DNA of 64,000 nucleotides, taken from Gallionella sp. (GTDB lineage: Bacteria > Pseudomonadota > Gammaproteobacteria > Burkholderiales > Gallionellaceae). A program made the translations under genes and the position numbers. Below the pieces are notes generated by a model that made no database searches, was not told where the DNA came from, and saw nothing but the letters and a program-made list of their open reading frames with translations. This document shows, piece after piece, positions 33,129-55,597 of the stretch (within the stretch, counting starts at the first letter, position 1; every line of letters starts with the position of its first letter). The stretch covers positions 13,338 to 77,337 of the forward strand of contig JBAZVL010000009.1 in the NCBI GenBank assembly GCA_041660905.1, read 5' to 3'.

Positions 33129-33514
33129 AGTCGCCGGAACTGCACAAGGTAGCCGCTCAAGTGGCGTAGCGAGTTGTGGGGGGCGGTTGATAAGGCAACG
33201 CTCACTTCGATGCGGCGAAACGCCGGGTTGGGCGTGGCGCTGATCTTTTCATCCCACAAAAACACCATGCCGGCCTGTGTCTGTTCGCCCTGAGCCGTGC
33301 CTGCGGGCAGCCAGTCGCCGCGTCCGGCATGCAGCGCGAGGCGATTTTGCGCGACCCAGTCGGCCAGCACGCGTACTCGCAGTGCATCGACGTGGCTGGT
33401 GCCAGCTCCTGTTGCGCGTAACACGGCTGCCATGGCAATAGCGAGTATCGCCAGCGCCACCAGCGATTCGAGCAGGGTAAATCCGCCTTGCCGGTTTAGC
33501 TTGTCGAGGTTCAT
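33125..33514 (-). CDS. gspI: Type II secretion minor pseudopilin GspI
   Basis: N-terminus GGFTLLESLVALAILAIAM. 129 aa. Confidence 0.85.
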   Translation of the reverse strand: MNLDKLNRQGGFTLLESLVALAILAIAMAAVLRATGAGTSHVDALRVRVLADWVAQNRLALHAGRGDWLPAGTAQGEQTQAGMVFLWDEKISATPNPAFRRIEVSVALSTAPHNSLRHLSGYLVQFRRL

Positions 33515-36114: not shown

Positions 36115-37275
36115 TTAAGCGGGCCATCCTGCATCAGCTTGCATCAGATAGTCCTTTTTCTTGTCCATGTCGGCATCCGTATCGACAAAGCGCCGGGCGA
36201 TGGTGCGAAACTCCTCTTGTATCTCCAGGAAGGCGTCCAGCATAGTGGCATCAAAATGGCTGCCTCGGCCTTCGCGCATAATCTGTACCGCCTTTTCATG
36301 CGACATGCCCGCTTTGTAGACGCGCCGACTGATCAACGCATCGTAAACATCGGCCACCGCCATCAGTCGCGCAGCGATAGGGATGTCATCGCCGGCTAAA
36401 CCTTCCGGATAGCCGCTGCCGTCCCATTTTTCCTGATGGGAGTAGGAGATAGACTTGGCCATGGTGAGGAACTCTACGCTGGTGCCCAGCGCCGTTTCAG
36501 CGTGCACGATGGCATCGCGTCCCAGCGTGGTGTGGGTTTTCATGATTTCAAACTCATGGGGTTCGAAACGCCCCGGTTTTAGCAGGATGCGATCGGGAAT
36601 GCCGACCTTGCCGATGTCGTGCAGCGGTGCCGATTTAAACAGCATATTGATGTTGCTGTCAGTCAAATACCAGGCAAATTTCGGATGGTCTTGTAACTTT
36701 TCGGCCAGCGCCTTGACATAAAACTGGGTGCGCCGTATATGGTTGCCGGTGTCGGAGTCGCGCGTTTCTGCCAAAGAGGCCATGGCCAAAATAGTCACAT
36801 CCTGAATAGCGCTCACTTCCAGAGTACGTTTGACGACCTCGCGTTCCAGGAACTCGTTTTGATCGCGCAAAAAACTCTCCATGGCGGTCAGCGCCAGATA
36901 GTTTTTGACGCGCGCCAGCACGATAGGGGGACTGATGGGTTTGGTGATGTAATCGACCGCGCCTAAGCTCAGCCCCGTCAACTCATCATCCATCTCGGAT
37001 TTTGCGGTCAGAAATATCACCGGAATATGCAAGGTTTTCGGATCGCGCTTGAGCTGCCGGCAGACCTCATAACCATCCAGTTCCGGCATCATGATGTCGA
37101 GCAGAATCAAGGCGGGCGGCGCGTCCGATCGTGCAATTTTCAGCGCCTTCTCGCCGCTGTTGGCAATTTTCACCTTGTAGTCATCGCAAAGCAGGTTGCT
37201 CATCAAAGTCAGATTGTCAGGGGCATCATCCACCACCAGGATCGTGGGCTTGTCGGTGAAACTAAAGGATTCCAT
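36115..37275 (-). CDS. Response regulator with HD-GYP c-di-GMP phosphodiesterase domain (RpfG-like)
   Basis: REC (ILVVDDAPDNL...LLDIMMPELDGYEV) plus HDIGKVGIPD and EKWDGSGYPEGL. ATG 37275 has the RBS GGAG and overlaps the upstream gene by 14 nt. Confidence 0.9.
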   Translation of the reverse strand: MESFSFTDKPTILVVDDAPDNLTLMSNLLCDDYKVKIANSGEKALKIARSDAPPALILLDIMMPELDGYEVCRQLKRDPKTLHIPVIFLTAKSEMDDELTGLSLGAVDYITKPISPPIVLARVKNYLALTAMESFLRDQNEFLEREVVKRTLEVSAIQDVTILAMASLAETRDSDTGNHIRRTQFYVKALAEKLQDHPKFAWYLTDSNINMLFKSAPLHDIGKVGIPDRILLKPGRFEPHEFEIMKTHTTLGRDAIVHAETALGTSVEFLTMAKSISYSHQEKWDGSGYPEGLAGDDIPIAARLMAVADVYDALISRRVYKAGMSHEKAVQIMREGRGSHFDATMLDAFLEIQEEFRTIARRFVDTDADMDKKKDYLMQADAGWPA

Positions 37276-40200
37276 GATCACTCCTTGCTGTTCTGTAAAG
37301 CACCGCTTCGGTGAGTAGTGCGAGCGTTTTTTCAAAATCAAAGGCGTTCATACTCTGACTGAGCCTGCGATAGTGAGCGGGGAAGGCCGCATTGAGCAGA
37401 TCTGCATTTTCCAGCATTAAATCAGAGGCCTGGGAGTCATCATCCGCCAGCAGTGCGGTCAGCTTGTCGCAGACTAGTGTGAGTCTTTGCAGGTCTACCG
37501 TGACCGCTGTTTTAGATGCTTCATCAGGCAGTTGCGCTTCCAGTTGAGCGATGAGCTGAACCAGCGGTGCAGCCAGCGCATCTATGCTGAGGTTGATTTC
37601 TCCACGGGGCTGTTGTTGTTTGATGGCGGTTTCCAGCTTTTCTGCCAGATGCTGCAAGTCGCCCGCACCGATATTGCCGGACGCGCCCTTCAAGGTGTGA
37701 ACCAGTCGTTCGGCCGTGACCCAGTCATGCTCATCCAGCGCCTTAATGATTTTCTGTATCGTCAGCTTTTCTCCGCCGACGAAGGTGCGCAGCATCGACA
37801 GGTAGAGCGATTGTTTACCCAGTACGCGACGAAGCCCGTTGACCGTGTCGAGCCCGTCGATGACAGGCACTCGTTCGGCCGCTTGCACCGCCCGTGTCAT
37901 CACACAGTTTTTTGCGGATAAGGCGGCGTGCGGCTTGACCCATTTGAGCAATGCTTTCCACAGTTCTTCCGGTTCTATCGGTTTGGCGACGTGATCGTTC
38001 ATGCCCGCCGCCATGCAGCGGTCGCGGTCTCCTTGCATGGCATTGGCCGTCATAGCCACGATCGGCAATTGGTCAAAGCGCGCCTGTTTGCGGATATTTA
38101 ATGTCGCCGTCACGCCATCCATGACCGGCATCTGCATGTCCATCAGCACAATGTCGTAGTCGGTGCTGTTCAATTTTTCCAGCGCCAACTGACCATTTTC
38201 AGCCAGATCAACGATGAAACCGGCATCGGTCAGCAGTTCGGTTGCGACTTCCTGATTCAGGTCGTTGTCTTCGACCAGCAGGATGTGCGCGCCCTCAATG
38301 CCGGCCAGTTTCAAGAAGGTATCGCTAGGCGCGCCACCGTAAATACGTTGTTCATCGACGACACCGCCCAGAATACGCACTACGCTGTCGAATAGAACAG
38401 AGGCGCTGGCAGGCTTGATCAGCACGTCTTCGATACCGGCCGCTTCTGCATCACGGATCACTTCTTCAGAGCCGTAACTGGTTAGCAGCATCCGGTGCGG
38501 AATGAACTCAAGCGGCAGATATTTGAGTTGTTTAGCCGTTTCAATGCCATCCATGCCCGGCATTTGCCAGTCCAGAAAGACGATTTCAAAAGGTTTTTTT
38601 ATCAAGTCCGCACGACTGACCGCTTCGATGGCCGTTTTGCCCGACTGCGCCTGTTCTACCTTCAGCCCCATGTTGCCAAGCAACTCGGCGAGCACCAGCC
38701 GGGCGTTTTCGTTGTCATCGACCACCAGAACGCGACGGCCTTGCAAATCAGCCGATAAGGCCAGTTTGCGCTGTTGCCCGCTGCTTTTTCCCATATGCGC
38801 GGTAAACCAGAACGTGCTGCCACGCCCGGGCTCGCTTTCCACGCCGACTTCGCCGCCCATCAGTTCGGCCAGTTTTTTGGAGATAACCAGTCCCAGCCCG
38901 GTACCGCCGAATTTTCGGGTGATTGAGGTGTCGGCCTGAGAGAAACGGTGGAATAACTGTTTGATCTGTTCCTCATTCAGACCGATACCGGTATCACGCA
39001 CCGCACAGTAGAGCAGAATGCTGTCGTCGCTCTGTTCCTTGATGCGAATGATGATACCGACTTCGCCTTGTTCGGTGAATTTGACCGCATTGTTGCAGTA
39101 GTTGATCAGAATTTGCCCCAGCCTCAACTGATCGCCGATTAACTTGAGCGGGACGTGTCGATCCACGTTGAACACCAGTTCCAGACCTTTGCTGGCCGTT
39201 TTTTCGGCGATCAGGTTAGCCACATTGTCGAGCACTTTTTCGAGCTCGAACTCGGTGTGCTCTATGGTCAGTTTGCCGGCCTCAATTTTGGAGAAATCGA
39301 GGATGTCGTTGATGATGCCCAGCAGATGGCGGCCTGAACCCTGAATTTTATTGATGTAATCGCGCTGACGCGGCGTCAGTTCCGTCTTCAGAGCCAGATG
39401 CGACATGCCGATAATCGCATTCATCGGCGTGCGAATTTCGTGGCTCATATTGGACAGGAAATCCGATTTGGCGAGATTGGCCTTTTCCGCGACCGACATA
39501 GCGCTTTCCAGTTCGACGTTCTTTTCCCGCAATACCTGATCCAGACGTTTGCGTTCGGTGACATCGCGTGCGGCTGAAAACACCCCTTGCAGCTTACGGT
39601 CACGATCGTAAAAGGTCGTCGAGTTATAGGACACCACGGTTTTCCTGCCGTCGCGCGCGCGCGCGGTCAATTCGTAGTCGGGCACTTTCTTTTTAATCAG
39701 CACCTGCTTGATGGCAGCTTCCGCACGATCAGGATCGGTAAAGTAATTTTTAAACGGCGCGCCGATCAGCTCGTCGCGCGTGCAGGCGGTGAGTGCTTCC
39801 ATCTGTTTGTTGACGTCGGTGATGATGCCGGCGGGGTCGGTGATGGTGATCGCATCGATGTTGGATTCAATCAGCGAACGGGTATAAAACTGCTGGTCGC
39901 GCAGCCGCTGATCGAGCTTTTTCTGCTCCTCTTCGACCTGCTTGCGCGCGGTGTTGTCGGTGCCGATCAACAAGTAACCGATGATGACATCCTGTGCGTC
40001 GCGCAAGGCGGTCACCGAGACGACCGCCGGAAAGCGGCTGCCATCCTTGCGGATATAGGTCAGCTCATAGATGTCCTCGATGCCGCGTGAGGCCTTGAAT
40101 ACCAGCGCTTCAAATCCCGGGGTAATCTGGGTGTCCAATTCGATGCTCAAGGCTTCTGCGCGGACGATGACTTCCTGCGGATCGGAGATGTCGGCCGGGG

Positions 40201-41290
40201 TGATCTTGTTCATCACCTCCATCGCGGTATAGCCTAACATGCGCTCGGCACCGACGTTGAAAATCTGAATTACGCCATTGGCATCAGTGGCGATGCTGGA
40301 GAAGTTGGCACTGTTAAAAATGGCGCTCTGCAAGGCATCGGCTTTCAACAGCGCTTCTTCAGCCTGCTTGCGTGCGGTGTTGTCGGTGCCGATCAACAAA
40401 TAGCCGATGATGACATCCTGTGCATCGCGCAATGCGGTGACCGAAACGACTGCGGGGAAGCGGCTGCCATCCTTGCGGATATAAGTCAGCTCATAGATAT
40501 CTTCGATGCCGCGTGCCGCCTTGAACACCAGCGCTTCAAAGCCCGGCGTGATGGGCGTGCCCAGTTCTGCGCTCAGGGCTTCCGCGCGCACGATCACTTC
40601 CTGCGGGTCGGAGATGTCGGCCGGGGTGATCTTATTCATCACTTCCATCGCGGTGTAACCCAGCATACGCTCGGCACCGACGTTGAAAATCTGAATCACG
40701 CCACGGGCATCGGTGGCGATGCTGGAGAAATTGGCGCTGTTGAAGATCGCGCTCTGCAAGGCGCCCGCCTTGAGCAGGGCTTCTTCAGCCTGTTTTCGTG
40801 CGGTGTTGTCAGTGCCGATCAGCAAATAGCCGATGATGATATCCTGCGCATCTCTTAGGGCCGTGACCGAGACGACAGCGGGGAAACGGCTGCCATCCTT
40901 GCGGATATAGGTCAGCTCATAGATATCCTCAATGCCGCGCGCAGCCTTGAACACCAGCGCTTCAAAGCCCGGCGTGATGGGCGTGCCCAGTTCAATGCTC
41001 AAGGCTTCCGCGCGCACGATGACTTCCTGCGGGTCAGAGATATCGGCCGGGGTGATCTTATTCACCACTTCCAGCGCGGTGTAGCCTAACATGCGCTCGG
41101 CACCGACGTTGAAAATCTGGATCACTCCTTTGGCATCGGTGGCGATGCTGGAGAAATTGGCGCTGTTAAAAATAGCACTTTGCAGCGCCCCGGTTTTGAT
41201 CAGTGCTTCCTCGCGCTGAACCTCGGAGATGACATCCGCTATACCCGATGAAGGTTTGACCGCAATCGTGTCATAAATGGCTAGTGGCAT
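37262..41290 (-). CDS. Large hybrid sensor kinase: 3 near-identical PAS modules, a fourth PAS, HisKA, HATPase, 2 REC, Hpt
   Basis: H-box [14 protein letters not shown], two receiver domains ([12 protein letters not shown]; [13 protein letters not shown]) and a C-terminal Hpt (HTLKGASGNIGA). ATG 41290 has the RBS GAAGG; the ORF-track start at 41296 is a TTG. Confidence 0.9.
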   Translation of the reverse strand: MPLAIYDTIAVKPSSGIADVISEVQREEALIKTGALQSAIFNSANFSSIATDAKGVIQIFNVGAERMLGYTALEVVNKITPADISDPQEVIVRAEALSIELGTPITPGFEALVFKAARGIEDIYELTYIRKDGSRFPAVVSVTALRDAQDIIIGYLLIGTDNTARKQAEEALLKAGALQSAIFNSANFSSIATDARGVIQIFNVGAERMLGYTAMEVMNKITPADISDPQEVIVRAEALSAELGTPITPGFEALVFKAARGIEDIYELTYIRKDGSRFPAVVSVTALRDAQDVIIGYLLIGTDNTARKQAEEALLKADALQSAIFNSANFSSIATDANGVIQIFNVGAERMLGYTAMEVMNKITPADISDPQEVIVRAEALSIELDTQITPGFEALVFKASRGIEDIYELTYIRKDGSRFPAVVSVTALRDAQDVIIGYLLIGTDNTARKQVEEEQKKLDQRLRDQQFYTRSLIESNIDAITITDPAGIITDVNKQMEALTACTRDELIGAPFKNYFTDPDRAEAAIKQVLIKKKVPDYELTARARDGRKTVVSYNSTTFYDRDRKLQGVFSAARDVTERKRLDQVLREKNVELESAMSVAEKANLAKSDFLSNMSHEIRTPMNAIIGMSHLALKTELTPRQRDYINKIQGSGRHLLGIINDILDFSKIEAGKLTIEHTEFELEKVLDNVANLIAEKTASKGLELVFNVDRHVPLKLIGDQLRLGQILINYCNNAVKFTEQGEVGIIIRIKEQSDDSILLYCAVRDTGIGLNEEQIKQLFHRFSQADTSITRKFGGTGLGLVISKKLAELMGGEVGVESEPGRGSTFWFTAHMGKSSGQQRKLALSADLQGRRVLVVDDNENARLVLAELLGNMGLKVEQAQSGKTAIEAVSRADLIKKPFEIVFLDWQMPGMDGIETAKQLKYLPLEFIPHRMLLTSYGSEEVIRDAEAAGIEDVLIKPASASVLFDSVVRILGGVVDEQRIYGGAPSDTFLKLAGIEGAHILLVEDNDLNQEVATELLTDAGFIVDLAENGQLALEKLNSTDYDIVLMDMQMPVMDGVTATLNIRKQARFDQLPIVAMTANAMQGDRDRCMAAGMNDHVAKPIEPEELWKALLKWVKPHAALSAKNCVMTRAVQAAERVPVIDGLDTVNGLRRVLGKQSLYLSMLRTFVGGEKLTIQKIIKALDEHDWVTAERLVHTLKGASGNIGAGDLQHLAEKLETAIKQQQPRGEINLSIDALAAPLVQLIAQLEAQLPDEASKTAVTVDLQRLTLVCDKLTALLADDDSQASDLMLENADLLNAAFPAHYRRLSQSMNAFDFEKTLALLTEAVLYRTARSDHGIL
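39914..41191. repeat. Intragenic tandem triplication, 3 x 426 bp (142-aa PAS module)
   Basis: The unit GALQSAIFNSANFSSIATDA.GVIQIFNVGAERMLGYTA...LLIGTDNTARKQAEEALLKA occurs three times with only a few substitutions. DNA landmarks recur at about 39941, 40366 and 40795, a 426-bp period. Confidence 0.9.
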
Positions 41291-41552
41291 GTTCAACCTT
41301 CGTTTATATCAGTGTTACATAGACAAACTTGTACTCACCGGCGATTAAGACGCCCGGTTTGCAGATTTCTACCAGCGACTTAGCAACAGTACTGAAACAT
41401 GTTGAGGAGAACGTTAGACTGGTGTGCTTAAATTACGCGGAGCTACTTAGGGTGTCTGTACGCTGTCGCACACAGAAACGACGGGAGGGGAAAAGGGAGG
41501 CTGAATTTGGCTGTGCTGACGGGTTGGTGATCAATGCACGGAACTAGGGTAG

Positions 41553-43159: not shown

Positions 43160-46100
43160 CTAATGAAGAACCCGTTTTTCGGCCTGTTCCACGGGTAAAT
43201 GACGGACTATCTGCGCAATGAGAATGCCCAGCGGTCCTGAGAGCGCGTCCATGATTCGTTTGATCTCATCGGGTGCTGCCTGCTTTTTGATCGCCAGTTC
43301 AAGCTCTGCGGCCAACGGCTGAACCTGACTGGCGCCGATATTGCCTGATGAACTCTTAAGATCATGTGCGCAACGTTCAGCGAGAGCCAGGTCAGTGGCG
43401 TCGAGTGCCGTTTGAATTTTCTGCAGCGCGTCTTGTCCGTTGCTGACAAATTTACGCAGCATCGACAGATAGAGGGATTTCTTGCCCAACACGCGACGCA
43501 GGCCATTGACCATGTCCAGTCCGTCGATGCCATCAGGTAATTCGGTACTCACGGGTGCCGGGTGCACGATGAGGCGAACCGCGTGTTTGGGTGGTATCCA
43601 TTTGAGCAGCGCCGCCCACAGCTCTTCCGGTTCGATCGGTTTTGCAACGTGGTCATTCATCCCCGCCTCAAGACAGCGCTCACGGTCACCTTGCATGGCG
43701 TTGGCCGTCATCGCCACCACGGGCAGGTTCTGGAAGCGTGGCTGTTTGCGGATAAGCCGGGTCGCGCTAACCCCGTCCATGACCGGCATCTGCATGTCCA
43801 TCAGCACGATGTCGTATTCTGCATCCTCCAGTTTGTCCAGCGCGAGCTGACCATTTTCGGCCAGATCCACACTGAATCCGGCATATTTCAACAGTTCGGT
43901 AGCGACTTCCTGATTGAGGTCGTTGTCCTCTACCAGCAGAATGCGGGCGCCTGCGATGGTGGCTAATTGTTCAAAGGTGTCGGATTGTGCGTCTACCAGA
44001 GTGCGCGGTCCATCGACAACGCCACCTAAGACGCGAACCACTCCATCGAACAGCAAAGAGGCATTGACCGGTTTGATCAGGATATCCTCGAAACCGGTAT
44101 CATCGGCACGCTTGATGACTTCCTCACGTCCGTAAGCGGTCACCATGATCAGGTGAGGCGTACGGTTAAGCGGCAAATCCTTGAGTTTCTTTGCAGTCTC
44201 TATGCCGTCCATGCCCGGCATTTGCCAGTCTAAAAAGACGATATCGAAGGGTAATCCCAGTGCTTCGGCACGACTGACCATGTCGATGGCGGATTTTCCA
44301 GAATCGGCCTGTTCGACGCTGAGCCGCATATTGCCCAGCAGGTCACCTAGCACCATGCGTGCATTTTCGTTATCGTCGACCACCAGTACGCGACGACCTT
44401 GTAAATCGCCAGACAGCACGGAGGTGCGTTGCTGGCTGGTGCTTTTTCTCAGACGCGCGGTAAACCAGAACGTGCTGCCCAGCCCCGGCTCGCTCTCAAC
44501 CCCGACTTCGCCACCCATCAGTTCAGCCAGCTTTTTGGAGATGGCAAGCCCCAGACCCGTGCCGCCAAATTCGCGGGTGATCGAGGTGTCCGCCTGCGAA
44601 AAGCGCTGAAATAAGCGGCTCATTTGCTCCTTGTTCAGTCCGATTCCGGTATCGCGTACGGCGAAATAGAGCACAATTTCCGTTTCGGTTTGCTCCTTGA
44701 CTCGGATTACGATGCCGACTTCGCCTAACTCGGTAAATTTAACCGCATTGTTGCAGTAATTGATCAGAATTTGTCCCAGACGGAGCGGATCGCCGATCAG
44801 TTTGAACGGCACACGCCGGTCTACATCGAAGATCAGTTCCAGATTCTTCGCTGCCGATTTTTCTCCAATTAGACTGGCGACATTATCGAGGACTTTTTCG
44901 AGATCGAATTCGGCGTGCTCCACCATCAGTTTGCCGGCTTCGATCTTGGAAAAGTCCAGAATATCGTTGATGATGCCGAGCAGATGACGACCTGATCCTT
45001 GGATTTTATTGATGTAATCGCGTTGACGGGTGGTGAGGTCGGTTTTGAGTGCCAGGTGTGACATACCGATGATGGAATTCATCGGGGTGCGGATTTCATG
45101 GCTCATGTTTGAGAGGAAGTCGGATTTTGCAAGATTGGCTTTTTCCGCTGCTGCGCGTGCGCTCTTGAGTTCAATGTTCCTGTCCAGCAGCAGTAATGCC
45201 TGGCGATTGCGTTCCGTCACATCGCGCGCTGCGGCAAATACGCCCTGCAGTACACCGTCCCCGTTATAGAAGGTTGCCGCATTGAAGGATACCTCCGTGT
45301 TCTGGCCATCGACTGCACGGACGGTGAGTTCATAGTCGCTGACCTTTTGTTCGATGATCACACGCTGTATGCCTGCCTCGGCACGTTGCGGATCGGTGAA
45401 ATAGTTTCTGAACGAGCTGCCGATCAGATCAATGCGGGTGCATCCGGTCAAGGCTTCCATCTGTTTGTTAACATCGGTGATGTTGCCGGACAGATCGGTG
45501 GTCATGATCGCATCGATGTTAGATTCGATCAGTGAGCGCGTGTAAAACTGCTGTTCGCGCAGCGCCTGCTGCACGGCATACTCGTCCGTTACATCGCGAA
45601 ATACCAGTACAGCACCATTGATGCGACCTTCACGGTCGCGTATCGGTGCGCAACTGTCTGCAATATCGCGTTCTTCGCCGCCTTGGGCAATCAGCACGGT
45701 GTGATTTGCGAGTCCAAAGACCGTTCCATGCAGCAGCGCTTGCATAACCGGAATGGTCGCGGGTTGTCGGGTTTCCTTATGGATAATATGGAAAATTTCA
45801 TCTATCGGGTGACCCAGAGCTTGATTCTGCGTCCAACCGGTGAGCACTTCGGCTAAGGGGTTCATCAGTGCAACCCCGGCATCGATATCGGTGGCGATGA
45901 CGGCATCACCGATGGAATTGAGGGTGATGGCCAGTTTTTCCTCGCTTAACTGCAAGGAAATGTTGGTGTGTTGCAGTTGTGTGTTCATTTCCTCCTGTAT
46001 CGTGAGTAAATGCTGTGTCTCTTTGTGCACCAGTTCCTTGAGCCGTTGCTGGTGTGAGCGATACAGCAGGTAAGCGAAGGACAGTGCAAACAGCAGGGTG

Positions 46101-46666
46101 CACAAACTGACGATCACGATGATGGTAAACAGATAGCGCATGCTAGCCTGAAACTCCTCGTCGTGCGCCTCCATCCTGGCTTGCTCGGCCCGGGTAAATT
46201 CCCGAACTTCGACCCGAATCATATCCATCAGTTGCTTGCCCTGACTGCCACTGACTGCGGCGATCACGCCTATCATGTCCTGATTGCGGCGAAATTCGAT
46301 GACGCGCGCCATTTCCAGCAGTTTGCCATCCAAAAGCGGAGCGATCGCGTTCAGGTGATGAAGGGATGGATTGTCCGTCGCATCCTTGCGCAAGGCGTCA
46401 AGCTGACCGGTAATGTGGCTTTTTTCGGCCACATATGGTTGCAAGAAAGCCTTATCTCCGGTCAGCAGATAACCCCGTTGCCCGGTTTCCATGTCTTTTA
46501 AGGCGGAGAGCAGTTCATTCGCATTGTTGAGCAGCAAAAATGACTCGTGACGAGCCTTGGCCGCTTCTTTCATTTTCTCGAATGCCTGAAATGACAACGC
46601 CAGCACCAGCAAGACCAGGAAGATTGCGCCGCCCAGCCATGCACCTGTTTTATGGTTTGAATTCAA
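43160..46666 (-). CDS. CHASE3-PAS-PAS hybrid sensor kinase (HisKA, HATPase, 2 REC, Hpt)
   Basis: CHASE3 signature [20 protein letters not shown] after TM1. The transmitter is about 85% identical by eye to that of 37262-41290. TTG 46666 is preceded by GGAGGG; the ORF is open to 46720 (also a TTG). Confidence 0.85.
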
Positions 46667-46839
46667 AATTTCCCTCCGCTGCTCGGGTTGTTCAGATGTG
46701 TTGTCCTGCGAGGTTCGCAACGACAGTTCGGTATTGTTTTTTAATACACCGTTTCACCATAACCTTGCGGGCGGTGTGCATCTGTGCGCTGGCGAACAAA
46801 GGAATGCGAGGGGGAGGGGGAGGTGGAGGTGGCGTACTT

Positions 46840-46883: not shown

Positions 46884-47720
46884 TTAAAGCAGTTTTTCAA
46901 GGCCGGAACGGGTCACTTCCTTGCCTATGCCCCGGTAGCCGGTGTATCTGCCGGTCTGATCAAACATGGGTTCGCCGCTGACCATCATGTGCTGATGAGA
47001 CCCGTCTGAATTGACTCTGGAGTAGATAAAATCAAGGAAGGGGAGGCGGGCGGCCAGATATTCCAGCAGCAGCTCGCGTTCCTCCTCGTTCCAGATGGCG
47101 CCCTGATCGTCGCGGATACAGCCTGATTTCTCATCAGGTTGGATGCCCAACATGTCAAACACCGGACCAAAAATTCGGGTGAAATGGCCATTTTCGTCCT
47201 GTTCCCAATACCAGTCGGAAGACAGTTCGGTAAGACGGCGAAAACGCGCTTCACTGGCGCGCAGCTCGTTGGTGCGTTCCAGAACGGTCTGTTCCAGCAG
47301 CTTGTTTTGATTTTCCAGCTTCTTATGCAGCAGACGCACCTCTAGGATGTTGCGTATGCGCGTCTGAACTTCGGTTAGATCAAACGGTTTGGCGATAAAA
47401 TCTTTTGCACCCGCTGAGAGTGCGCGCAGTTTATGGTCGGGTTGAGCCGTGATGACTATGATGGGCAGATAATCATCCTCATTGATTTTTTTGAGTTTTT
47501 CCATCACCTGAAAGCCATCCATGCCGGGCATTTTCAGATCGAGCAGGATCAAATCGTAAGCGTGTTGACAGTGCAGGTCATACACGGCATAGGGATCCAT
47601 GGTGGAAGTAACACAGGTATAGCCAGAATCGCCGAGCAGTTCGCCAAGTAAAATGACATTGGACTGCTGATCGTCAACGATCAGTATGCTGGCTTTAAGA
47701 ATTTCCTGCTCGGTAATCAT
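46884..47720 (-). CDS. Response regulator, REC plus C-terminal PAS-like domain
   Basis: REC (ILIVDDQQSNV...LLDLKMPGMDGFQV...KPFD), a coiled-coil linker and a PAS-like SSDWYWEQDENGHFTRI...GYRGIGKEVT. ATGA overlap with the upstream kinase. Confidence 0.85.
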   Translation of the reverse strand: MITEQEILKASILIVDDQQSNVILLGELLGDSGYTCVTSTMDPYAVYDLHCQHAYDLILLDLKMPGMDGFQVMEKLKKINEDDYLPIIVITAQPDHKLRALSAGAKDFIAKPFDLTEVQTRIRNILEVRLLHKKLENQNKLLEQTVLERTNELRASEARFRRLTELSSDWYWEQDENGHFTRIFGPVFDMLGIQPDEKSGCIRDDQGAIWNEEERELLLEYLAARLPFLDFIYSRVNSDGSHQHMMVSGEPMFDQTGRYTGYRGIGKEVTRSGLEKLL

Positions 47721-49072
47721 GGGGGTTCTCCATTTTTTATTAATATATTCAACGTCTTATTGATATTTCGGGGGGTGGGGTCGCGTGTCAGCTCGATCCA
47801 GAATTCGCTGCCCACCCCGACTGTGCTTTTCACACCGATGCTGCCGCTCATCAGTTCTATGAGTTTCTTGGAAAATACCAAGCCGATGCCGGTGCCCTCC
47901 GTGGCGCTGTGTTCAAAGCCCAGACGGTTGAATGGCTGAAAAAGCTGGGCTATCTTCTCCTCCGGCAGTCCTTCGCCGCTGTCTTTGATGCCGATGCGGA
48001 TGTGTTCAATACCCGCCGTACATTCGACGACGATCTTGCCATTTTCACGGTTGTACTTGATGGCATTGTTAAGCAGGTTAATCAGCACCTGCTTTAAGCG
48101 GATGCGATCTGCATTGACCAGCCAGCTTTTATCGAAAGGGATAAATTCCAAATGGATGCCGTGTTGCTGCGCCTGCAAATCGATCAGGGTCTGGCATTCC
48201 AGCATCACTTCAGTCAATAAAATCGACTCGAGTGAGAGTGAAAGCTTGCCGGACTCGATGGTTGCCATATCTAGCGTTTCATTAATTAATTCAAGAAGAT
48301 ACCAGCCCGCCTTGCTAATTTGTTTCAATCTGGAGCTCTGCACCGTGGTGGGGGCGGGCGAACCGGATTCTAGCAGCTGGCTAAAGCCTAAAATGGTATT
48401 GAGCGGAGTGCGCAACTCATGGCTCATATTGGACAAAAATTCTGATTTGGCACGATTGGCTTTTTCCGCGACCAGTTTAGCGTTCTCCAATCGAGTCTGG
48501 GTGATTTGCAGTTGTTCGGTGAGCATTTGCGCTTCAATATTGGCAATTACCAGTCGTTCATTCACTTGTTGCAACAAAATGCTGTGGCGTTCGTTTGCAT
48601 CCTGACTGATCTGGGTTGCATCCTGCCTGATTCCCGTTGCATCCTGACTGGTCTGAGTGGCTTCCTGCCTGATTTCCGTTGCATTCTGGCTGGACTGTGT
48701 CGCCTCCTGACTGATTCCCGTTGCATCCTGGCTGGACTGGGTCGCCTCCTGACTTATTCCCGTTGCATTCTGGCTGGACTGGGTCGCCTCTTGACTGATT
48801 CCCGTTGCATCCTGGCTGGACTGGGTCGCCTCCTGGCTGATTCCCGTTGCATTCTGGCTGGACTGGGTCGCCTCCTGGCTAATTCCCGTTGCATCCTGAC
48901 TGGTTTGGGTTGCATCCTGTCTGATTCCGGTTGCCGTCTGCCGCTCAGCAATTGTCGTGTGCATATTCTTTTCACGCAAGTTGGCTATGACGCTAACGGT
49001 CATTACTGAAACACCTTCGTGTTGGCTGACTAAATCAGGTTCAGTCAGGTCATTCTGATCAACAAGCAGCAT
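47717..49072 (-). CDS. Cytoplasmic histidine kinase with an N-terminal array of 16 heptapeptide repeats
   Basis: H-box SHELRTPLNTILGF and an HATPase (GTGIGLVFSKKLIELMSG). No TM segment is evident. Residues 47-158 are AT..SQ(D/E/N) repeats. It starts 18 nt after the KaiC-like stop. Confidence 0.85.
   Translation of the reverse strand: MLLVDQNDLTEPDLVSQHEGVSVMTVSVIANLREKNMHTTIAERQTATGIRQDATQTSQDATGISQEATQSSQNATGISQEATQSSQDATGISQEATQSSQNATGISQEATQSSQDATGISQEATQSSQNATEIRQEATQTSQDATGIRQDATQISQDANERHSILLQQVNERLVIANIEAQMLTEQLQITQTRLENAKLVAEKANRAKSEFLSNMSHELRTPLNTILGFSQLLESGSPAPTTVQSSRLKQISKAGWYLLELINETLDMATIESGKLSLSLESILLTEVMLECQTLIDLQAQQHGIHLEFIPFDKSWLVNADRIRLKQVLINLLNNAIKYNRENGKIVVECTAGIEHIRIGIKDSGEGLPEEKIAQLFQPFNRLGFEHSATEGTGIGLVFSKKLIELMSGSIGVKSTVGVGSEFWIELTRDPTPRNINKTLNILIKNGEPP
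48599..48934. repeat. Coding tandem repeat, 16 x 21 bp (effectively 8 x 42 bp) encoding ATGISQE/ATQSSQ(D/N)
   Basis: Read from the translation: ATGIRQD ATQTSQD (ATGISQE ATQSSQN/D)x5 ATEIRQE ATQTSQD ATGIRQD ATQISQD. The DNA repeat is visible from 48599. Confidence 0.9.
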
Positions 49073-49090
49073 CGGTATTCGCCTCGATTT

Positions 49091-50563
49091 TCACCGGTTT
49101 GGTATGGGGTTGAGCGTCGGGCTGCCAGACATCAGTCCGGTGTAGTCAGTCAGGGTGTCGCCTATCTCGATCCCATTGTGCTTGATGTCGTACAGGCGGA
49201 TGTCTTTGCTGTGCGAGCTACCGCGAACTTTAACCACGGAGAACACGCGCTTGAATTGACCTGAAATTTCTACATAGCGCTGGACGATAATGGCATCGGC
49301 TAGAAAGGCGCTGCCGAATTGACTGAAGCGCAAGTCGGTGTAACGGTCTTCCAGCTCCGAGGTCATCAGCACGCTCACCCCCAAACTGGTCAGTTGAGCC
49401 ACCATACGGTACAAGGAACCCCGGAAATCTTCACTGAATTCGGGGGCGAGGGCTAATTCGAAGCCGGAGAGCGAGTCGATCACCACGCGCGTCGCTTTCA
49501 TGCGGCTGATCATTTGAATCAGATCGTGCAGGGTTTCATCGATGGACAGATCCAGAGAACGGGTATCGATGACGCCCACGCTGCCCGAATTGACCATGGC
49601 CTGCAAGGTATTGCCCAGCAGCTGATTCGGGCTTTTCTCGAAGGCGGCAATTACACCGGTTTCGCCATTGCGTGCACCTTCGGCGAGAAATTCGGTCGCC
49701 ATCACCGTTTTCCCGGAACCCGAGGGTCCGACCACCAGCAAGGAATATCCGACCGGCAATCCGCCTCCCATCATCTCATCGAGGCCGGCAATCCCCATGG
49801 CAATGCGTCGTTCACCGGTTGTGGCGCTGGGCGTTGAGTCCGACTTAGGGGCAGAATCAATGATCGCACGCGGAAAGACCTGTAGCCCTTCATTGCTGAT
49901 GCGGAAGGTATGTAAACCGGGCACCTGAGCCTGTCCGCGCATTTTGACCACCTGCATCTTTCGCACCATCGAATTGCGCTGCAAGCTTTGTGACAGCCAC
50001 AAAATACCATCCGCTACGGTAAATACCGGGGTGGATTCGGCTTCCGGTGTCAGATATTCACCGATCAGAAAGGTGGTTGCCTGCCAGCTGGTCATTTGCA
50101 GTCCGAGTTGTTGCACAAATTTTTGCAGATCGGACGCGGTCTGGTCATTTTGTCTGGAGGCTTGCACCACGGAGCGAAAAGAATCGACAAATACCAGGCT
50201 TGGAGAATAATTCATCACTTCAGCACTGATGCGTGCCAGCACTTTGTCAAAATTGCCATCTATCAGTTCAGCCGAAAGATTGACGAAGCGCAGCGCTTGA
50301 TTCATTTTGTCGAAATTAAAGAAAGAAAACTGCTGCTGATAACGCAGCATTTTTAACGCAGGTTCGCCCAGCACGGTAAAAAACAGCGCGCGATGATCGG
50401 GCGTGGCCAGTGCAAACATGATCTGGTGAGCTAGGGTGGTTTTACCGCTCCCCGGCGTTCCTGCAATCAGGTTAAATGAGTATTCCGGCAAACCGCCCCC
50501 CAGCAGATCATCTAGGCCGGGTACGCCTGTTTTCAGGCGACGTATTTCTACCTTGTTACTCAT
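49091..50563 (-). CDS. kaiC: KaiC-like double RecA-domain ATPase
   Basis: Two KaiC/RecA-like halves, each with GLD..LGGGLP and a Walker A (GTPGSGKT; GPSGSGKT). The C-terminal block YVEISGQFKRVFSVVKVRGSSHSKDIRLYDI resembles KaiC YVEIRGEMSRAINVFKMRGSWHDK. Confidence 0.88.
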   Translation of the reverse strand: MSNKVEIRRLKTGVPGLDDLLGGGLPEYSFNLIAGTPGSGKTTLAHQIMFALATPDHRALFFTVLGEPALKMLRYQQQFSFFNFDKMNQALRFVNLSAELIDGNFDKVLARISAEVMNYSPSLVFVDSFRSVVQASRQNDQTASDLQKFVQQLGLQMTSWQATTFLIGEYLTPEAESTPVFTVADGILWLSQSLQRNSMVRKMQVVKMRGQAQVPGLHTFRISNEGLQVFPRAIIDSAPKSDSTPSATTGERRIAMGIAGLDEMMGGGLPVGYSLLVVGPSGSGKTVMATEFLAEGARNGETGVIAAFEKSPNQLLGNTLQAMVNSGSVGVIDTRSLDLSIDETLHDLIQMISRMKATRVVIDSLSGFELALAPEFSEDFRGSLYRMVAQLTSLGVSVLMTSELEDRYTDLRFSQFGSAFLADAIIVQRYVEISGQFKRVFSVVKVRGSSHSKDIRLYDIKHNGIEIGDTLTDYTGLMSGSPTLNPIPNR

Positions 50564-50978
50564 TATCTAATTCCTTGGTGGTGTGAGCCGGGGTGTTTAA
50601 TTTCCAGGCCGTACGTAAAATACTTAAGGTGAGCTGCACGCCGATCAACGATTTGAGGATGTTGGTAAACGTGGTCAGCAACAACCTGTTTGCGGCATGG
50701 ACTTGTTCTGGCGAATGCAATGCATAGGTTGCTTTCAGGTCGTGAAAGTAGGTCGGCGGCGGGTCGGAATTGATGCCGGACTCAAGCCAGGGGAAGCTGG
50801 CCTTTGAAAGCAGCAGACTCCGCGCGTAGAGCGAGGCGAAGCCTCCTTCACCGACGATCGAAATAATTTCTGTGGCCATTTGCTCCCATGCTTCAATCGG
50901 GTCAATAGCGATCGTCTCGGATTGCTGCCAGATGATGCTTTCAATCAGTTGCTGGCTAACGAGGTTGTCAGTTTTCAT
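50556..50978 (-). CDS. Hypothetical protein (140 aa) overlapping the start of the KaiC-like gene
   Basis: ATG 50978 (the ORF-track TTG is at 50990). There is an 8-nt overlap with the KaiC-like ATG. No family was recognised, and it is not KaiA- or KaiB-like by eye. Confidence 0.5.
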   Translation of the reverse strand: MKTDNLVSQQLIESIIWQQSETIAIDPIEAWEQMATEIISIVGEGGFASLYARSLLLSKASFPWLESGINSDPPPTYFHDLKATYALHSPEQVHAANRLLLTTFTNILKSLIGVQLTLSILRTAWKLNTPAHTTKELDNE

Positions 50979-51089
50979 ATAAAAAATCAAAAAGTGAGTC
51001 TGAATTTTGACAAGGGTGTAAACATCCGTCTTCGTGCCAGCACGCTATGTCAGGCAGCGTTATTTGGGCTGCATCGGGACAGTCTATAC

Positions 51090-51869
51090 TCAATCGTTGA
51101 CATGACTCGAACTATTATCATTCCAGCGAGTGACGGTTCTGTTTGTTGCGCTATCGCTGAGCAGACGACGGTATTCTTTTTTCACCACCTGATAACATTC
51201 GCAGGCATAGGACTCCAGATTGGTGCGATTGAGTATGGTGATGTGACCCCGGCGGTAACTGATCAGCCCCAATCGCTGTAAATTGCCGGCTGTTTCGGTG
51301 ATGCCTTCGCGGCGCACGCCCAGCATGCCTGCGATCAGTTCCTGCGTCATGGTCAGTTCGTTGCCGGGCAGGCGATCCAGCGTCTGCAATAACAAGCGAC
51401 ACAATTGCTGTTCAACCGAATGATGGCGATTGCACACCGCTGTTTGGGAAATATGAGAAATCAGTGCCTGAGTGTAGCGCAGCAGTACTCGCATCACTTG
51501 CCCTGCGCGATTGAACTCTTCCATGATCAATCTGGCCTGTATCCGGTAGCCATGCCCCCCCGAATAGACGGCGGCGCGACTGGTGGTGGAATTTTCTCCC
51601 ATAAAAAGCGAGATGCCATGCACCCCCTCGCGACCTATGCCGGCAATTTCGGCCATTGCGCCGTTTTCCATGATGTAATGCAAAGAGACGATTGCGCTGG
51701 TCGGAAAATAAACATAGTTCAATTTTCTGCCTGATTCATAAATGATTTCACCGAGCGGCATGGCAACCAGTTCCAGATGAGGATGAATGCGCTCGAATAC
51801 CTCCTGAGAGAATGAGGCGATCAGCTGATTTTGCCTGGGATCGTGCGGCGTGGGTAACAATGCGGCCAT
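51090..51869 (-). CDS. Crp/Fnr family transcriptional regulator
   Basis: A cNMP-binding beta-roll region plus a C-terminal HTH (MTQELIAGMLGVRREGITETAGNLQRLGLISYRRGHITI). Confidence 0.85.
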   Translation of the reverse strand: MAALLPTPHDPRQNQLIASFSQEVFERIHPHLELVAMPLGEIIYESGRKLNYVYFPTSAIVSLHYIMENGAMAEIAGIGREGVHGISLFMGENSTTSRAAVYSGGHGYRIQARLIMEEFNRAGQVMRVLLRYTQALISHISQTAVCNRHHSVEQQLCRLLLQTLDRLPGNELTMTQELIAGMLGVRREGITETAGNLQRLGLISYRRGHITILNRTNLESYACECYQVVKKEYRRLLSDSATNRTVTRWNDNSSSHVND

Positions 51870-53656: not shown

Positions 53657-55597
53657 ATGAAAAAGCTTGAATGGTTGAGCAGACCGGTACAGTGGTTGAT
53701 AGCCTCGTTGCTGTTTGGATTAGTCGCATTATTTGCAGGATGCGGCGGAAGTGGTGCATCTGGTGTGTCAGCCCCCGCGCCGGGCAGTAGTTTGGGCGTA
53801 ACAGCTCCAAGTCCCACCGTGGTCGCTGTGGTCCCGCTCGCTGATGCAACAGGTGTGCCAGTCAATATCAAAAAGATAACGGCTGCTTTCAGCAACACGA
53901 TGGATTCTGTCACGTTGACCTCAGCGAATTTCACTCTGTCTTGTCCGGCTGCACCGGTTGCCGGTGGCGTTGTCAGTTATCTGGCGGCGGGTAATGTCGC
54001 AACATTATCGCTACCCGTAGCCAATCTTCCAGCGTCGACGCAATGCACGGTAACCGTGACCACCGGGGTGCGCGATGCAAGCGGTGTCGCGCTGGCGGGT
54101 AACTATGTGTGGAAATTTACTACCGGAATTGCGGCAGACACAGCGCCGCCGAGCGTCGCTTTGACGGTTCCCGTTGACGGTGTGACTGGTGTCGCAACCA
54201 ACACCATGGTGTCAGCTTCTTTTAGTGAAAACATGGATCCGGCGAGTATCACGGCAACCAGCTTCACGGTAGCAAACACGACAGCAGGGGGCGGGGCGGT
54301 AGTAGGGGCGGTCACCTATCTGCTGGGCTCTAAAGTCGCGACCTTTACGCCGGCAGCAACGTTGCCTGCCAGCAGTTTATATACGGTGACGATAAGCACG
54401 ACAGTCGCAGATTTGGCCGGAAACCTGATGGCGGCCAACAAGGTGTGGACTTTTACCACGGGGGCGGCTGCGGTAACCAGTGTTTTTCCGGGAGTGGCCG
54501 GAACGCCGGGCGCTTCTACCACTGATCCTACCGTAAACTCGGCTAACCCGAGCAATGGTGCGATCAACGTGGCGACCAGTACCAATCAATGGACGGGTTC
54601 GGCTAATGTGGTGACGGGTAAGCTGCTGACCGCAAACTTCAGCCAGACGATGAACCCGGCAACCATCACAACCCCGGGTGTTTTTACGCTCAAGGAAACG
54701 GTCGCCGGTACTAATGTGCCCGGTAGTGTGGTCATCAATGCCACGAATACTGCCGCGACCTTTACACCGACTGTCGCCGCTCTGATGCCGAATACATTTT
54801 ATACCGTCACTGTTTCGACTGCGGCGCTGAACGCGGGCGGCATGGCCATGGCGAATGCGGTGGTATGGGGGTTCAAAACCAACGGGGTGGCGTTAACTGA
54901 ACAAGCGCCCGTTGAACTTGGCAGCGCTGGAAATTACACGATTTTCGCACTTACCGGGATTGCCAATGCCACCACGCCGGCGGTCATTGCCGGAGACATG
55001 GGGGTGGGGCCTGGCGTGACATCTACGGCGATCACCGGTCCCTGGGCGTTAACCTTGCCCGCCGCAAGTGCATTTTCCACGTCGGCGCAAGTCAGCGGAA
55101 AAGTCTATGCTTTTGATTATGCCAACCCCACTCCGGCTTATGTAACGACAGCCGCTGCGGACATGAATGCCGCCTACAACGATGCTTTTGGCCGGACTGC
55201 CGCTGTCGGTGCTGCGTTCTTGAATGTCGGCGGCGGATCGCTGAGCGGATTAACGTTGCCGCCCGGAACTTACACCTGGGGTAGCGCCGTTACCTTGCCA
55301 TTTGGCACTAACCTCACGCTGGCAGGTGGCCCTGATGATGTCTGGATTTTCCAGATTAGCGGAACACTGACCACCGCCGCGAATACCAATGTATTTCTCA
55401 GTGGCGGCGCGCGCGCCAAAAATGTGTTCTGGCAGACGTCAGGTGCCGTAACGCTGGGCGCTACCGCACACATTGAAGGGGTGGTGCTGTCTAAGACTGC
55501 GATAAATTTTGGCAATCAGGCGACGGCGAACAGCCGGTTGCTGGCGCAAACCGCCGTCAATCTTGATCAGAATGCCGTCGCACAACCCGTTCCGTAA
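53657..55597 (+). CDS. Lipoprotein with three Ig-like (SbsA/Big_5-type) domains and a C-terminal DUF3494 ice-binding-like beta-solenoid domain
   Basis: Lipobox LFAGC. Repeated P..GATGV..N..I.A.FS..MD modules. C-terminal LGSAGNYTIFALTGI..., LPPGTYTWGSAV, DVWIFQISGTLTTAANTNV, AKNVFWQTSGAVTLGATAHIEGVVLSKTAI and SRLLAQTAVNLDQN match the DUF3494 pattern. Confidence 0.8.
   Translation: MKKLEWLSRPVQWLIASLLFGLVALFAGCGGSGASGVSAPAPGSSLGVTAPSPTVVAVVPLADATGVPVNIKKITAAFSNTMDSVTLTSANFTLSCPAAPVAGGVVSYLAAGNVATLSLPVANLPASTQCTVTVTTGVRDASGVALAGNYVWKFTTGIAADTAPPSVALTVPVDGVTGVATNTMVSASFSENMDPASITATSFTVANTTAGGGAVVGAVTYLLGSKVATFTPAATLPASSLYTVTISTTVADLAGNLMAANKVWTFTTGAAAVTSVFPGVAGTPGASTTDPTVNSANPSNGAINVATSTNQWTGSANVVTGKLLTANFSQTMNPATITTPGVFTLKETVAGTNVPGSVVINATNTAATFTPTVAALMPNTFYTVTVSTAALNAGGMAMANAVVWGFKTNGVALTEQAPVELGSAGNYTIFALTGIANATTPAVIAGDMGVGPGVTSTAITGPWALTLPAASAFSTSAQVSGKVYAFDYANPTPAYVTTAAADMNAAYNDAFGRTAAVGAAFLNVGGGSLSGLTLPPGTYTWGSAVTLPFGTNLTLAGGPDDVWIFQISGTLTTAANTNVFLSGGARAKNVFWQTSGAVTLGATAHIEGVVLSKTAINFGNQATANSRLLAQTAVNLDQNAVAQPVP

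Follow-up and report, generated by a model that had tools for sequence, protein, structure and literature searches.

A KaiC-type ATPase gene of Gallionella is coupled to the gene of a conserved 140-residue protein and followed by signalling enzymes with a shared N-terminal module

In a 64,000-nucleotide stretch of a Gallionella sp. genome (GenBank assembly GCA_041660905.1, contig JBAZVL010000009.1, positions 13,338 to 77,337; hereafter "the window") four genes on the minus strand encode an unannotated protein of 140 amino acids (p140), a KaiC-like ATPase, a histidine kinase (HK) and a REC-PAS-like response regulator. A preliminary description of this DNA had pointed out that the four genes are tightly coupled, the first two overlapping by 8 nt, the second and third being 18 nt apart and the last two sharing an ATGA, and this was verified with the open reading frame listing and by reading of the junctions. 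The range given there, 47717-50978, includes the genes for p140, the KaiC-like protein and the HK, but omits nearly all of the REC-PAS gene that was named in its title. The genes of the locus, in positions of the window, are:

50556-50978, minus strand: p140 gene, ATG start, 140 amino acids (open reading frame listing)
49091-50563, minus strand: KaiC-like gene, 490 amino acids, double-domain ATPase (open reading frame listing and Pfam)
47717-49072, minus strand: HK gene, 451 amino acids, soluble protein, H-box His218
46884-47720, minus strand: REC-PAS-like response regulator gene, 278 amino acids, REC domain with D61
51090-51869, minus strand: Crp/Fnr-type regulator gene, 111 nt upstream of p140 on the same strand

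The p140 and KaiC-like genes overlap by 8 nt (ATGAGTAA), the end of the former (GAT AAT GAG TAA) overlapping with the ATG AGT AA of the latter, and the AAGGAA Shine-Dalgarno motif of the KaiC-like gene is situated within the penultimate codons of p140. The TGA of the KaiC-like gene is followed by an 18-nt gap that contains GAGG and by the ATG of the HK gene, which in turn is joined to the regulator gene by an ATGA overlap with GGAG just before it. An alignment verified that the start methionine of p140 is the same as that of its homologues. The features of a two-component system are present: the HK matched HisKA and HATPase_c in Pfam above the cut-offs and has its phosphoacceptor H218 within an 'SHELRTP' H-box, and the regulator has a REC domain with an acceptor aspartate. 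The gene upstream is of the Crp/Fnr type, as had been described (HTH_Crp_2 with an E-value of 9.2e-14 and a weak cNMP_binding match). An Rfam scan of the 64-kb window yielded zero RNA elements, and promoter and terminator scans were uninformative, with a single promoter-like site on the wrong strand.

The conservation of the locus was analyzed with a scan of one genome per species, which revealed a relative in 120 species, and 80 loci were fetched. The KaiC-like gene directly followed the p140 gene in 84 of the 84 loci with both genes, and it did so in every locus not cut at a contig end. The two genes overlapped by 8 nt in 68 loci, by 4 nt in eight, by 11 nt in five and by 16 nt in one, while gaps of 2-4 nt were found in two; all of the 8-nt-overlap junctions listed had AAGGAG or AAGGAA (in one case AAGGAT) just upstream. 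Because the junction has been kept in 84 independent loci, the arrangement is far beyond chance. A distant p140 homologue (P0204, E-value of about 6e-25 to the profile) also precedes the same KaiC-like subtype.

The KaiC-like protein spans the Methylococcales, Gallionellaceae, Sulfuricellaceae, Thiobacillaceae, Burkholderiaceae and others, and the identities across taxa are 72-79% for this protein and 42-56% for p140. The hosts include Methylobacter and other Methylococcales, Gallionella, Sulfuriferula, Sulfurirhabdus, Thiobacillus, Nitrotoga, Nitrosospira, Rhodoferax, Polaromonas, Undibacterium, Glaciimonas, Collimonas and a metagenome-assembled genome (MAG) of the Chromatiaceae, among others, and many of them are from glacial or cold habitats. 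The p140 of the window is 50-56% identical to its nearest species-level relatives in the genome scan, and close relatives of the window, with a p140 that is 76-95% identical, retain its gene order. Between the Gammaproteobacteria (Methylobacter) and the Betaproteobacteria (Gallionella, Sulfuriferula, Rhodoferax) the KaiC-like protein is about 78% identical and p140 about 48% (loci L001-L080). The former value may be above the expectation for vertical descent, which would point to horizontal spread between freshwater and sediment bacteria that share habitats, to very strong constraint, or to both. Undibacterium arcticum KCTC 42986 has two copies of the system (L021 and L024); in L024 the match to the KaiC-like protein begins only at residue 166, and this copy may be a frameshift or a pseudogene.

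The KaiC-like protein has two PF06745 (KaiC) stretches in Pfam (E-value of 4.6e-70) and, as had been described, two Walker A sites, GTPGSGKT (G35-T42) and GPSGSGKT (G279-T286). Its top PDB sequence match was cyanobacterial KaiC (204 bits, HMMER), and the top Foldseek matches of an AlphaFold2 (AF2) model (pLDDT 73) were all full-length KaiC structures (TM 0.75-0.81, 24-29% identity). The possibility that the ATPase is a RadA/Sms protein was rejected, because its TIGR00416 match was confined to the P-loop region and reached 53 of the required 403 bits, and all structural neighbours were KaiC; the assignment to the KaiC type made in the preliminary description was therefore upheld. The protein was devoid of a zinc finger, a Lon domain and a DNA-binding domain, and showed weak Pfam matches to RecA, RadA and DnaB at the P-loop. 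It scored below the curated NCBIfam equivalog cut-offs NF006799 (246 versus 408 bits) and TIGR02655 (168 versus 546 bits), and likewise below that of the ArlH model (82 versus 215 bits). Among the top 120 database relatives listed, throughout which the identity to the window protein was at least 77%, the names 'circadian clock protein KaiC', 'ATPase domain-containing protein', 'RAD55 family ATPase' and 'serine/threonine protein kinase' were found. A function in a defence system was also considered and rejected, as PADLOC yielded no match for p140 and only P-loop-level matches for the KaiC-like protein. Taken together, the ATPase is a KaiC-type double-domain protein, yet a non-clock KaiC.

The active sites were compared in a MAFFT alignment of T. 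elongatus KaiC and 74 orthologues. At the positions of the KaiC phosphosites S431 and T432 the protein has A419 and F420 within an invariant 'GSAF', and the HMMER alignment with PDB KaiC gave the same result, so that the Ala-Phe pair that had earlier been placed there by eye was confirmed. Both Walker A motifs, the Walker B residues D127 and D363, the Lys/Arg fingers and E309 in CII are invariant in the 74 orthologues. E309 is the retained equivalent of E318 of KaiC, while the equivalent of E319 is K310. In KaiC the CI Glu pair E77/E78 sets the slow ATPase of the clock. Its position is occupied by L65-G66 in the motif 'FTVLGEP', which is invariant in the 74 orthologues, and a CI domain devoid of the Glu-Glu pair probably only binds nucleotides. 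Also invariant are two serines, S414, which corresponds to T426 of KaiC, and S418 at position 430, and the motif 'RFS-x-FGSAF' characterizes the subtype. Compared with T. elongatus KaiC, the B-loop region lacks five residues, and the protein ends six residues past the equivalent of the A-loop, the KaiA-binding tail being absent. In agreement with the preliminary description, the cassette contains neither kaiA nor kaiB, and a search of the 64-kb window and of 85 related loci with an S. elongatus KaiB query did not reveal a KaiB-like open reading frame.

The coupled protein p140 had no match in Pfam (E-values up to 10), NCBIfam or PADLOC, and no PDB sequence match with single-sequence or profile searches. 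Its AF2 model (pLDDT 83.7, pTM 0.79) is all-helical with six helices, and a Foldseek search against the PDB, which included the KaiA and KaiB entries, had a best E-value of 2.8 with a TM below 0.3. KaiB, with its thioredoxin-like alpha/beta fold, and the C-terminal four-helix bundle of KaiA were rejected as identities of this all-helical protein, to which they had no fold, sequence or profile match. As no match of the fold, in PDB sequences, in Pfam or in PADLOC was found, p140 is not KaiA, KaiB or a housekeeping protein. It is strictly co-conserved with the ATPase, and the view taken of it in the preliminary description is upheld.

A word-indexed search yielded 54 homologues of p140, and a profile search of 1.84 billion representatives of 50% identity clusters yielded 2,612 clusters with E-values of up to 1e-3, 1,115 of them up to 1e-10. 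Nearly all family members have a length of about 140 amino acids. In the homologue alignment 19 columns are invariant, including W31, G43-E44-G46, R53-S54, W64 and W125; they comprise a Gly-rich motif, V-G-E-G-G-F-x-S-L-Y-x-R-S, and three tryptophans. The alignment is devoid of conserved Cys or His residues and of a cofactor motif. The C-terminus 'KEFKNE' is conserved and the tail is predicted to be disordered (AF2); the conservation is attributed to a constraint at the nucleotide level, because the Shine-Dalgarno motif (AAGGAG/AAGGAA) of the KaiC-like gene is encoded there. One protein of 391 amino acids (P0180) was examined as a putative fusion of p140 and KaiC, but it consists of p140 and the CII half only and represents a deletion or a misassembly, and the other long forms of p140 had mis-called starts.

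The genes that follow the KaiC-like gene in related loci encode an HK, often a hybrid HK-REC, and/or a GGDEF-EAL protein. Proteins of both kinds share an N-terminal module, which was encoded downstream on the same strand in 61 of the 62 loci whose DNA extends 2.5 kb or more beyond the KaiC-like gene. Its first part is a short polar or acidic head ('MNRNDNDG.SDTDDPGQ...RRESAVIDDEA'), the second a run of heptads with the pattern h-R-[E/Q]-[D/E/N]-A-x-x, and the third a conserved helix ('..SDDHM.MLQQANAHLVIATIEAQKLAEQVQ'). The helix was matched with phmmer in HK and GGDEF-EAL proteins alike in 58 of the 80 genome loci (HK only in 24, GGDEF-EAL only in 21, both in 10, untyped in 3), and it is fused in register to the kinase H-box region or to the GGDEF domain ('LDHLAHHD.LT.LPNR'). 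Two elements of the module were located within the HK gene of the window:

48506-48577, minus strand: conserved 'LLQQVNERLVIANIEAQMLTEQLQ' ("LQQAN") helix, HK residues 166-189, running into the DHp domain (phmmer)
48595-48934, minus strand: tandem repeat in the variable part of the stalk, 42 nt x 8.1 copies with 88% matches, encoding heptad pairs (TRF)

The module had no Pfam match, and neither a PAS nor a REC/KaiB-like domain was found at the N-terminus of the HK; that this kinase has no KaiB-like N-domain had been claimed before, and the heptad stalk and the conserved helix are found at this position instead. A 59-residue profile of the module retrieved three short matches from a collection of 5.8 billion proteins, the query being too short for that E-value scale.

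In the window the stalk is rich in Ser, Thr and Gln, with heptads such as 'SQEATQS SQDATGI', while those of most relatives are R-E-D-A-A-x-L with few Ser or Thr; further examples are 'VRQDATx', from close relatives of the window, and 'LREDAAH LREGNAT'. In 19 of the 22 proteins in which both anchors were located, the head anchor and the helix are 55, 62, 69, 76, 83, 97, 132 or 279 residues apart, all of them values of the form 55+7n. The length of the stalk varies fivefold while the heptad register is kept, with Ala and Val/Ile/Leu at the a and d positions, which is the signature of a putative continuous coiled coil in phase with the output domain. The repeat in the HK gene, which had already been noted, is real, but its place in a heptad-quantised stalk common to the outputs of the system had been missed. 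Arrays of the stalk were also found in the GGDEF-EAL genes of L021 and L024, which contain 5.9 and 16.1 copies of one and the same 42-nt unit, and in L081 (21 nt x 14); young tandem arrays that expanded independently thus make up the stalk DNA.

In two loci, L001 (12611-14608) and L013 (12653-14650), the GGDEF-EAL protein has a REC domain in place of the head and the stalk and retains the 'LQLQQANEHLVVATIEA' helix. The helix may accordingly be the transmission element, with head and stalk as an exchangeable input. In a Nitrosospira MAG (L033) a second, truncated p140 gene (11836-12222) abuts a module-bearing GGDEF-EAL gene (12209-13393) without a second KaiC-like gene. This truncated p140 and P0180 both break in or just past the 'AN.LL..T' helix of p140, and both could be rearrangements or assembly errors.

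The preliminary description had regarded the four genes as a cassette that might be co-conserved, and this was not borne out. The REC-PAS and Crp genes are present in only about a quarter of the loci, and in many genomes the HK is a hybrid, or a GGDEF-EAL protein stands in its place or beside it. As the pairing of p140 and the KaiC-like protein was found in 84 of 84 loci and the module of the HK or GGDEF-EAL protein in 61 of 62, the conserved unit therefore consists of three parts, namely p140, the KaiC-like protein and a module-bearing output, and not of four genes.

The genes that accompany this core in about a quarter of the loci encode the REC-PAS-like protein, the Crp/Fnr-type protein and a CHASE3 hybrid kinase. 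In the window the gene of the latter is:

43160-46720, minus strand: CHASE3-PAS-HK-REC-REC-Hpt hybrid kinase gene (Pfam; context in loci L081, L084, L037 and L065)

The REC-PAS-like protein matched Response_reg and, below the cut-off, PAS_9 (E-value of 1.2e-4) in Pfam; its acceptor D61 lies in 'LLDLKMPGMDG', the REC domain has matches in the PDB, and the 13 aligned orthologues were 64-97% identical. Pfam did not reveal a DNA-binding domain in this regulator, and therefore the analogy to the KaiC-SasA-RpaA output pathway that had been drawn before is a loose one. Relatives of the Crp/Fnr-type protein in related loci had 57-69% identity (tblastn) and their order varied; in L037 and L065 it was permuted to Crp, hybrid HK, REC-PAS, p140, KaiC, HK.

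In the window the cassette heads a 17-kb signalling array on the minus strand, which also encodes a REC-REC-HK, a 1,344-residue multi-PAS hybrid kinase, a REC-HD-GYP and a REC-HK-REC protein. The 1,344-residue kinase (37262-41296, minus strand) contains three nearly identical PAS units of about 125 residues ('LLKAGALQSAIFNSANFSSIATDAKGVIQIFNVGAERMLGYTA...'). The same repeated 'LLKAGALQSAIFNSANFSSIATDAKGVIQIFNVGAERMLGYTA' unit also forms the kinase encoded directly after the KaiC-like gene in Methylobacter svalbardensis and a related MAG (L001, 10102-12657; L013, 9943-12699), and these multi-PAS kinases start with a remnant of the module, 'SDDHITMLQQ'. The kinase core of the REC-HK-REC protein (34534-36105, minus strand) is 54% identical to that of the KaiC-linked HK, with a REC domain at the position of the stalk. 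Its gene adjoins that of the REC-HD-GYP protein (36115-37341, minus strand), which is probably a phosphodiesterase of cyclic di-GMP (c-di-GMP). The REC-HD-GYP protein and the related kinase in the array tie the cassette of the window to c-di-GMP, although it has no module-bearing GGDEF-EAL protein.

An alignment of the upstream regions revealed a further element in front of the p140 gene:

50998-51011, minus strand: degenerate copy (GTCAAAATTCAGAC) of a 14-nt palindrome, starting 33 nt upstream of the p140 ATG

The consensus is GTCGTTATATCGAC, of the form GTCG(T/A)TATA(T/A)CGAC. In a scan of 83 loci and the window the palindrome was present with at most two mismatches in 27 loci, in 24 of which it started 30-35 nt upstream of the p140 start, while 5.6% of shuffled upstream regions contained it. 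The loci include L001, L013, L022, L025, L028, L036, L039, L054, L059, L073 and L078, and in L064 it lies 53 nt upstream. It was found with or without an adjacent Crp/Fnr gene, and is a candidate for an operator or promoter element that serves the operon; alternatively, it could overlap a -10 box.

Three observations were made on the wider neighbourhood. A protein of 646 residues that looks secreted and abounds in Ala, Thr, Gly and Val is encoded at 53657-55597 on the plus strand, and a protein of L081 that was compared with it in length and position only, and agrees in both, matched Big_5 and Ice_binding in Pfam. Just downstream of the signalling array (29679-34068, minus strand) a run of genes has prepilin-type signal sequences ('GFTLIELLV'), and their products resemble the pseudopilins and assembly proteins of type II secretion. 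In L084, which is closely related to the window, genes for cold-shock (CSD) and HSP20 proteins (5165-5932, minus strand) are situated just upstream of the Crp/p140/KaiC-like cluster on the opposite strand.

From the gene content, its coupling and conservation, the substitutions in the active sites and the heptad register of the shared module it is proposed that the locus encodes a non-circadian KaiC-type signalling device, an ATP-driven input that steers two-component and c-di-GMP outputs. We consider this proposal somewhat likelier to be right than wrong. In the mechanism that we infer, including all contacts between proteins, the direction in which the signal flows and the physiological input, p140 and the KaiC-like protein would be co-produced and would form a complex, the latter presumably as a hexamer like KaiC. 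The catalytically intact CII would drive the nucleotide state of the ring, while CI would probably bind nucleotides only, and p140 would bind to the ring and tune or read its nucleotide cycle, acting as a ring regulator or adaptor in the functional slot of KaiB/KaiA. The output enzymes would sense the state of the ring via their common N-terminal module; such a docking is proposed because Pseudomonas KaiC homologues bind their cognate kinase via its N-terminal domain (Terrettaz et al., bioRxiv 10.1101/2022.01.26.477890). The signal would then pass along a parallel coiled-coil stalk into the DHp or GGDEF domain and switch the enzyme. In the window the HK would phosphorylate the ATGA-coupled REC-PAS-like protein and thereby feed the downstream phosphorelay and the HD-GYP array. 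With Ala-Phe at the KaiC phosphosites the device would be a switch or a slow ATPase timer and not a phosphorylation oscillator, and the non-oscillating switch that had been suggested earlier is a plausible reading of the sequence.

It is tempting to go one step further and to speculate that p140, the KaiC-like protein and the heptad-stalk module form an unrecognised class of cytoplasmic input, in which a RecA-fold hexamer with a new-fold partner replaces the sensor domain and drives two-component and c-di-GMP enzymes via a coiled coil that can freely evolve in length by whole heptads; this generalization is possible, but doubtful. If it is true, a slow ATPase cycle would report energy state, temperature or elapsed time without a phosphorylation cycle, and the system would be descended from the Kai system or a cousin of it, without being a clock, and an unrelated protein would take its KaiB-like slot.

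Several observations weigh against the proposed signalling device. The 'LGEP' motif of CI keeps a Glu one position downstream, and CI may therefore still hydrolyse ATP. The invariant S414 and S418 could be alternative phosphosites, which would restore a phosphorylation-based mechanism. As p140 has no recognisable fold or motif, its role as a regulator, adaptor or sensor is a guess. One locus (L057) has no module-bearing gene downstream. A mimicry of the output module by p140, in analogy to KaiB and the N-domain of SasA, had been considered on the basis of the helices 'AANRLLLITFTD..GEQLT' and 'QQANAHLVIATIEA..AEQV', but hhalign of the two alignments did not reveal a relation (Prob 0.1, E-value of 0.58), so that a simple mimicry of the KaiB/SasA style is unsupported.

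The second of these observations leads to the main alternative, a phosphorylation-based hourglass or kinase, in which the ATPase would autophosphorylate on S414/S418, or would use p140 or the Ser/Thr-rich stalk as a substrate, and the level of phosphorylation would be the signal. The invariance of both serines in the 74 orthologues, the retained general base E309 of CII and the abundance of Ser, Thr and Gln in the stalk of the window are in accordance with it, as are the name 'serine/threonine protein kinase' in some databases and the precedent of Pseudomonas group II, which also is devoid of S431/T432 and for which nearby Thr residues have been proposed as phosphosites. However, the database names are automatic, the substrate-like residues are not conserved in the R-E-D-A-A-x-L stalks of most relatives, and a kaiB for a dephosphorylation phase was not found in the window and the 85 loci with the S. 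elongatus query; this alternative is regarded as unlikely. A different division of labour would make p140 a sensor of a small ligand, temperature or redox state that gates the KaiC-like ATPase, which would merely amplify its signal to the outputs. Its gene is the most upstream one, the protein diverges faster than the ATPase (42-56% versus 72-79% identity), as sensors often do, the Gly-rich motif and three Trp are invariant, and many hosts are cold or glacial, with cold-shock and HSP20 genes nearby in the one locus checked (L084). Yet conserved Cys or His residues, a cofactor motif and a match to a ligand-binding fold are all absent and the link to the habitat is anecdotal, and a sensory p140 is thus judged to be quite unlikely.

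Two further explanations would remove the locus from KaiC-type signalling without a clock altogether. A chance or regulatory neighbourhood of a KaiC-like protein that functions in DNA repair or recombination (RadA, RadB, 'RAD55 family') and is unrelated to the kinase could be derived from the NCBI name 'RAD55 family ATPase' of some orthologues and from the weak RecA/RadA/DnaB matches at the P-loop. It is highly improbable, because the order of p140, KaiC-like protein and signalling enzyme is kept in 61 of 62 loci of two classes, a zinc finger, a Lon domain and a DNA-binding domain are absent, the RadA score is 53 bits against 403, and the best structures are all KaiC. A true circadian or hourglass KaiC clock with kaiB elsewhere in the genome would agree with the KaiC fold and domain order, and only 64 kb of the genome are in view. 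But it is contradicted by the Ala-Phe at S431/T432, by the lost CI Glu-Glu pair, the B-loop region that is five residues shorter and the absent C-terminal tail, by scores far under the curated KaiC cut-offs and by the 85 loci in which the S. elongatus query did not find kaiB, so that it hardly comes into consideration.

The preliminary description had presented a KaiC-like cassette without KaiA/KaiB in its title. A KaiC homologue beside a kinase and without KaiA/KaiB and the phosphosites has, in fact, already been catalogued (PMC3164672; bioRxiv 10.1101/2022.01.26.477890). In contrast, the p140 partner, the invariant Leu-Gly site in CI and the shared heptad-stalk module appear to be new. In a literature search that covered few subscription journals, an obligate partner, an invariant loss of the CI pair, a module common to HK and c-di-GMP enzymes and a heptad-quantised stalk were not described, and nothing relevant on the partner or on KaiC in the host genera was found.

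The function of many non-cyanobacterial KaiC homologues and of replacements of KaiA/KaiB is an open question in Kai biology, and the system offers a clean handle on it, with an obligate, coupled partner whose fold has no known match, an ATPase under very strong constraint that is about 78% identical across two proteobacterial classes, has a degenerate CI site and is devoid of the phosphosites, and a portable module for docking and transmission that would connect it to phosphorelay and c-di-GMP outputs. The rule of whole heptads in stalk length is a natural experiment on coiled-coil signal transmission. Culturable carriers are Sulfuriferula multivorans, S. plumbiphila, S. nivalis, Methylobacter svalbardensis, Undibacterium arcticum, Collimonas and Nitrincola. 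Both the p140 family and the N-terminal module deserve database models, which neither of them has.

Several known systems come close to this one. In their study of the Ramlibacter genome De Luca et al. (2011, PMC3164672) described a 'third family' of KaiC with poorly conserved phosphosites (SS, SA, SF, AF and others) beside HK or GGDEF/EAL genes. The system described here resembles it in the absence of kaiA/kaiB, in the degenerate phosphosites, 'AF' being listed explicitly, and in the signalling neighbours. That family was called heterogeneous and was left unanalysed; a conserved partner, a shared N-terminal module and a heptad rule were not reported, although 'hypothetical proteins' were drawn in the supplementary maps. 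The well-defined 'Nt_HK' family of the same study is a different system, with SY/TY sites and a REC/KaiB-like N-domain ('RtaNt'). The modules of Pseudomonas (bioRxiv 10.1101/2022.01.26.477890), especially group II, are similar in that a KaiC homologue without KaiB forms an operon with an HK and often with a regulator that does not bind DNA, and in group II phosphorylatable residues at S431/T432 are likewise absent. They differ in that a p140-like partner was not reported and in that the kinase docks via a PAS domain and not via a heptad-stalk N-terminus; moreover, GGDEF-EAL proteins are alternative outputs here, and the nearby Thr residues of group II contrast with 'RFS-x-FGSAF'.

In comparison with the cyanobacterial KaiABC/SasA-RpaA system, the genomic slot of kaiB or kaiA is taken here by a small, co-expressed partner. 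In contrast to that system, S431/T432, the CI Glu-Glu pair, the KaiA-binding tail, KaiA and KaiB are absent here and the B-loop region is shorter; unlike SasA and RpaA, the HK has no thioredoxin-like domain and the regulator no DNA-binding domain. The KaiBC hourglass timers of purple bacteria (Rhodopseudomonas palustris, PMC4794148; Rhodobacter sphaeroides, PDB 8dba/8fwi) are likewise built on a non-cyanobacterial, KaiA-independent KaiC, but they retain the phosphosites and an adjacent kaiB. The match of the purple-bacterial KaiC to the window protein is weaker than that of the cyanobacterial one (117 versus 204 bits, HMMER against the PDB).

Archaeal single-domain KaiC-like ATPases such as ArlH have been proposed to be hubs of signal transduction. 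The archaeal hubs are single-domain proteins and have other partners, but they share with the system of the window the concept of a KaiC-like ATPase of RecA fold that is paired with small lineage-specific partners and signalling outputs.

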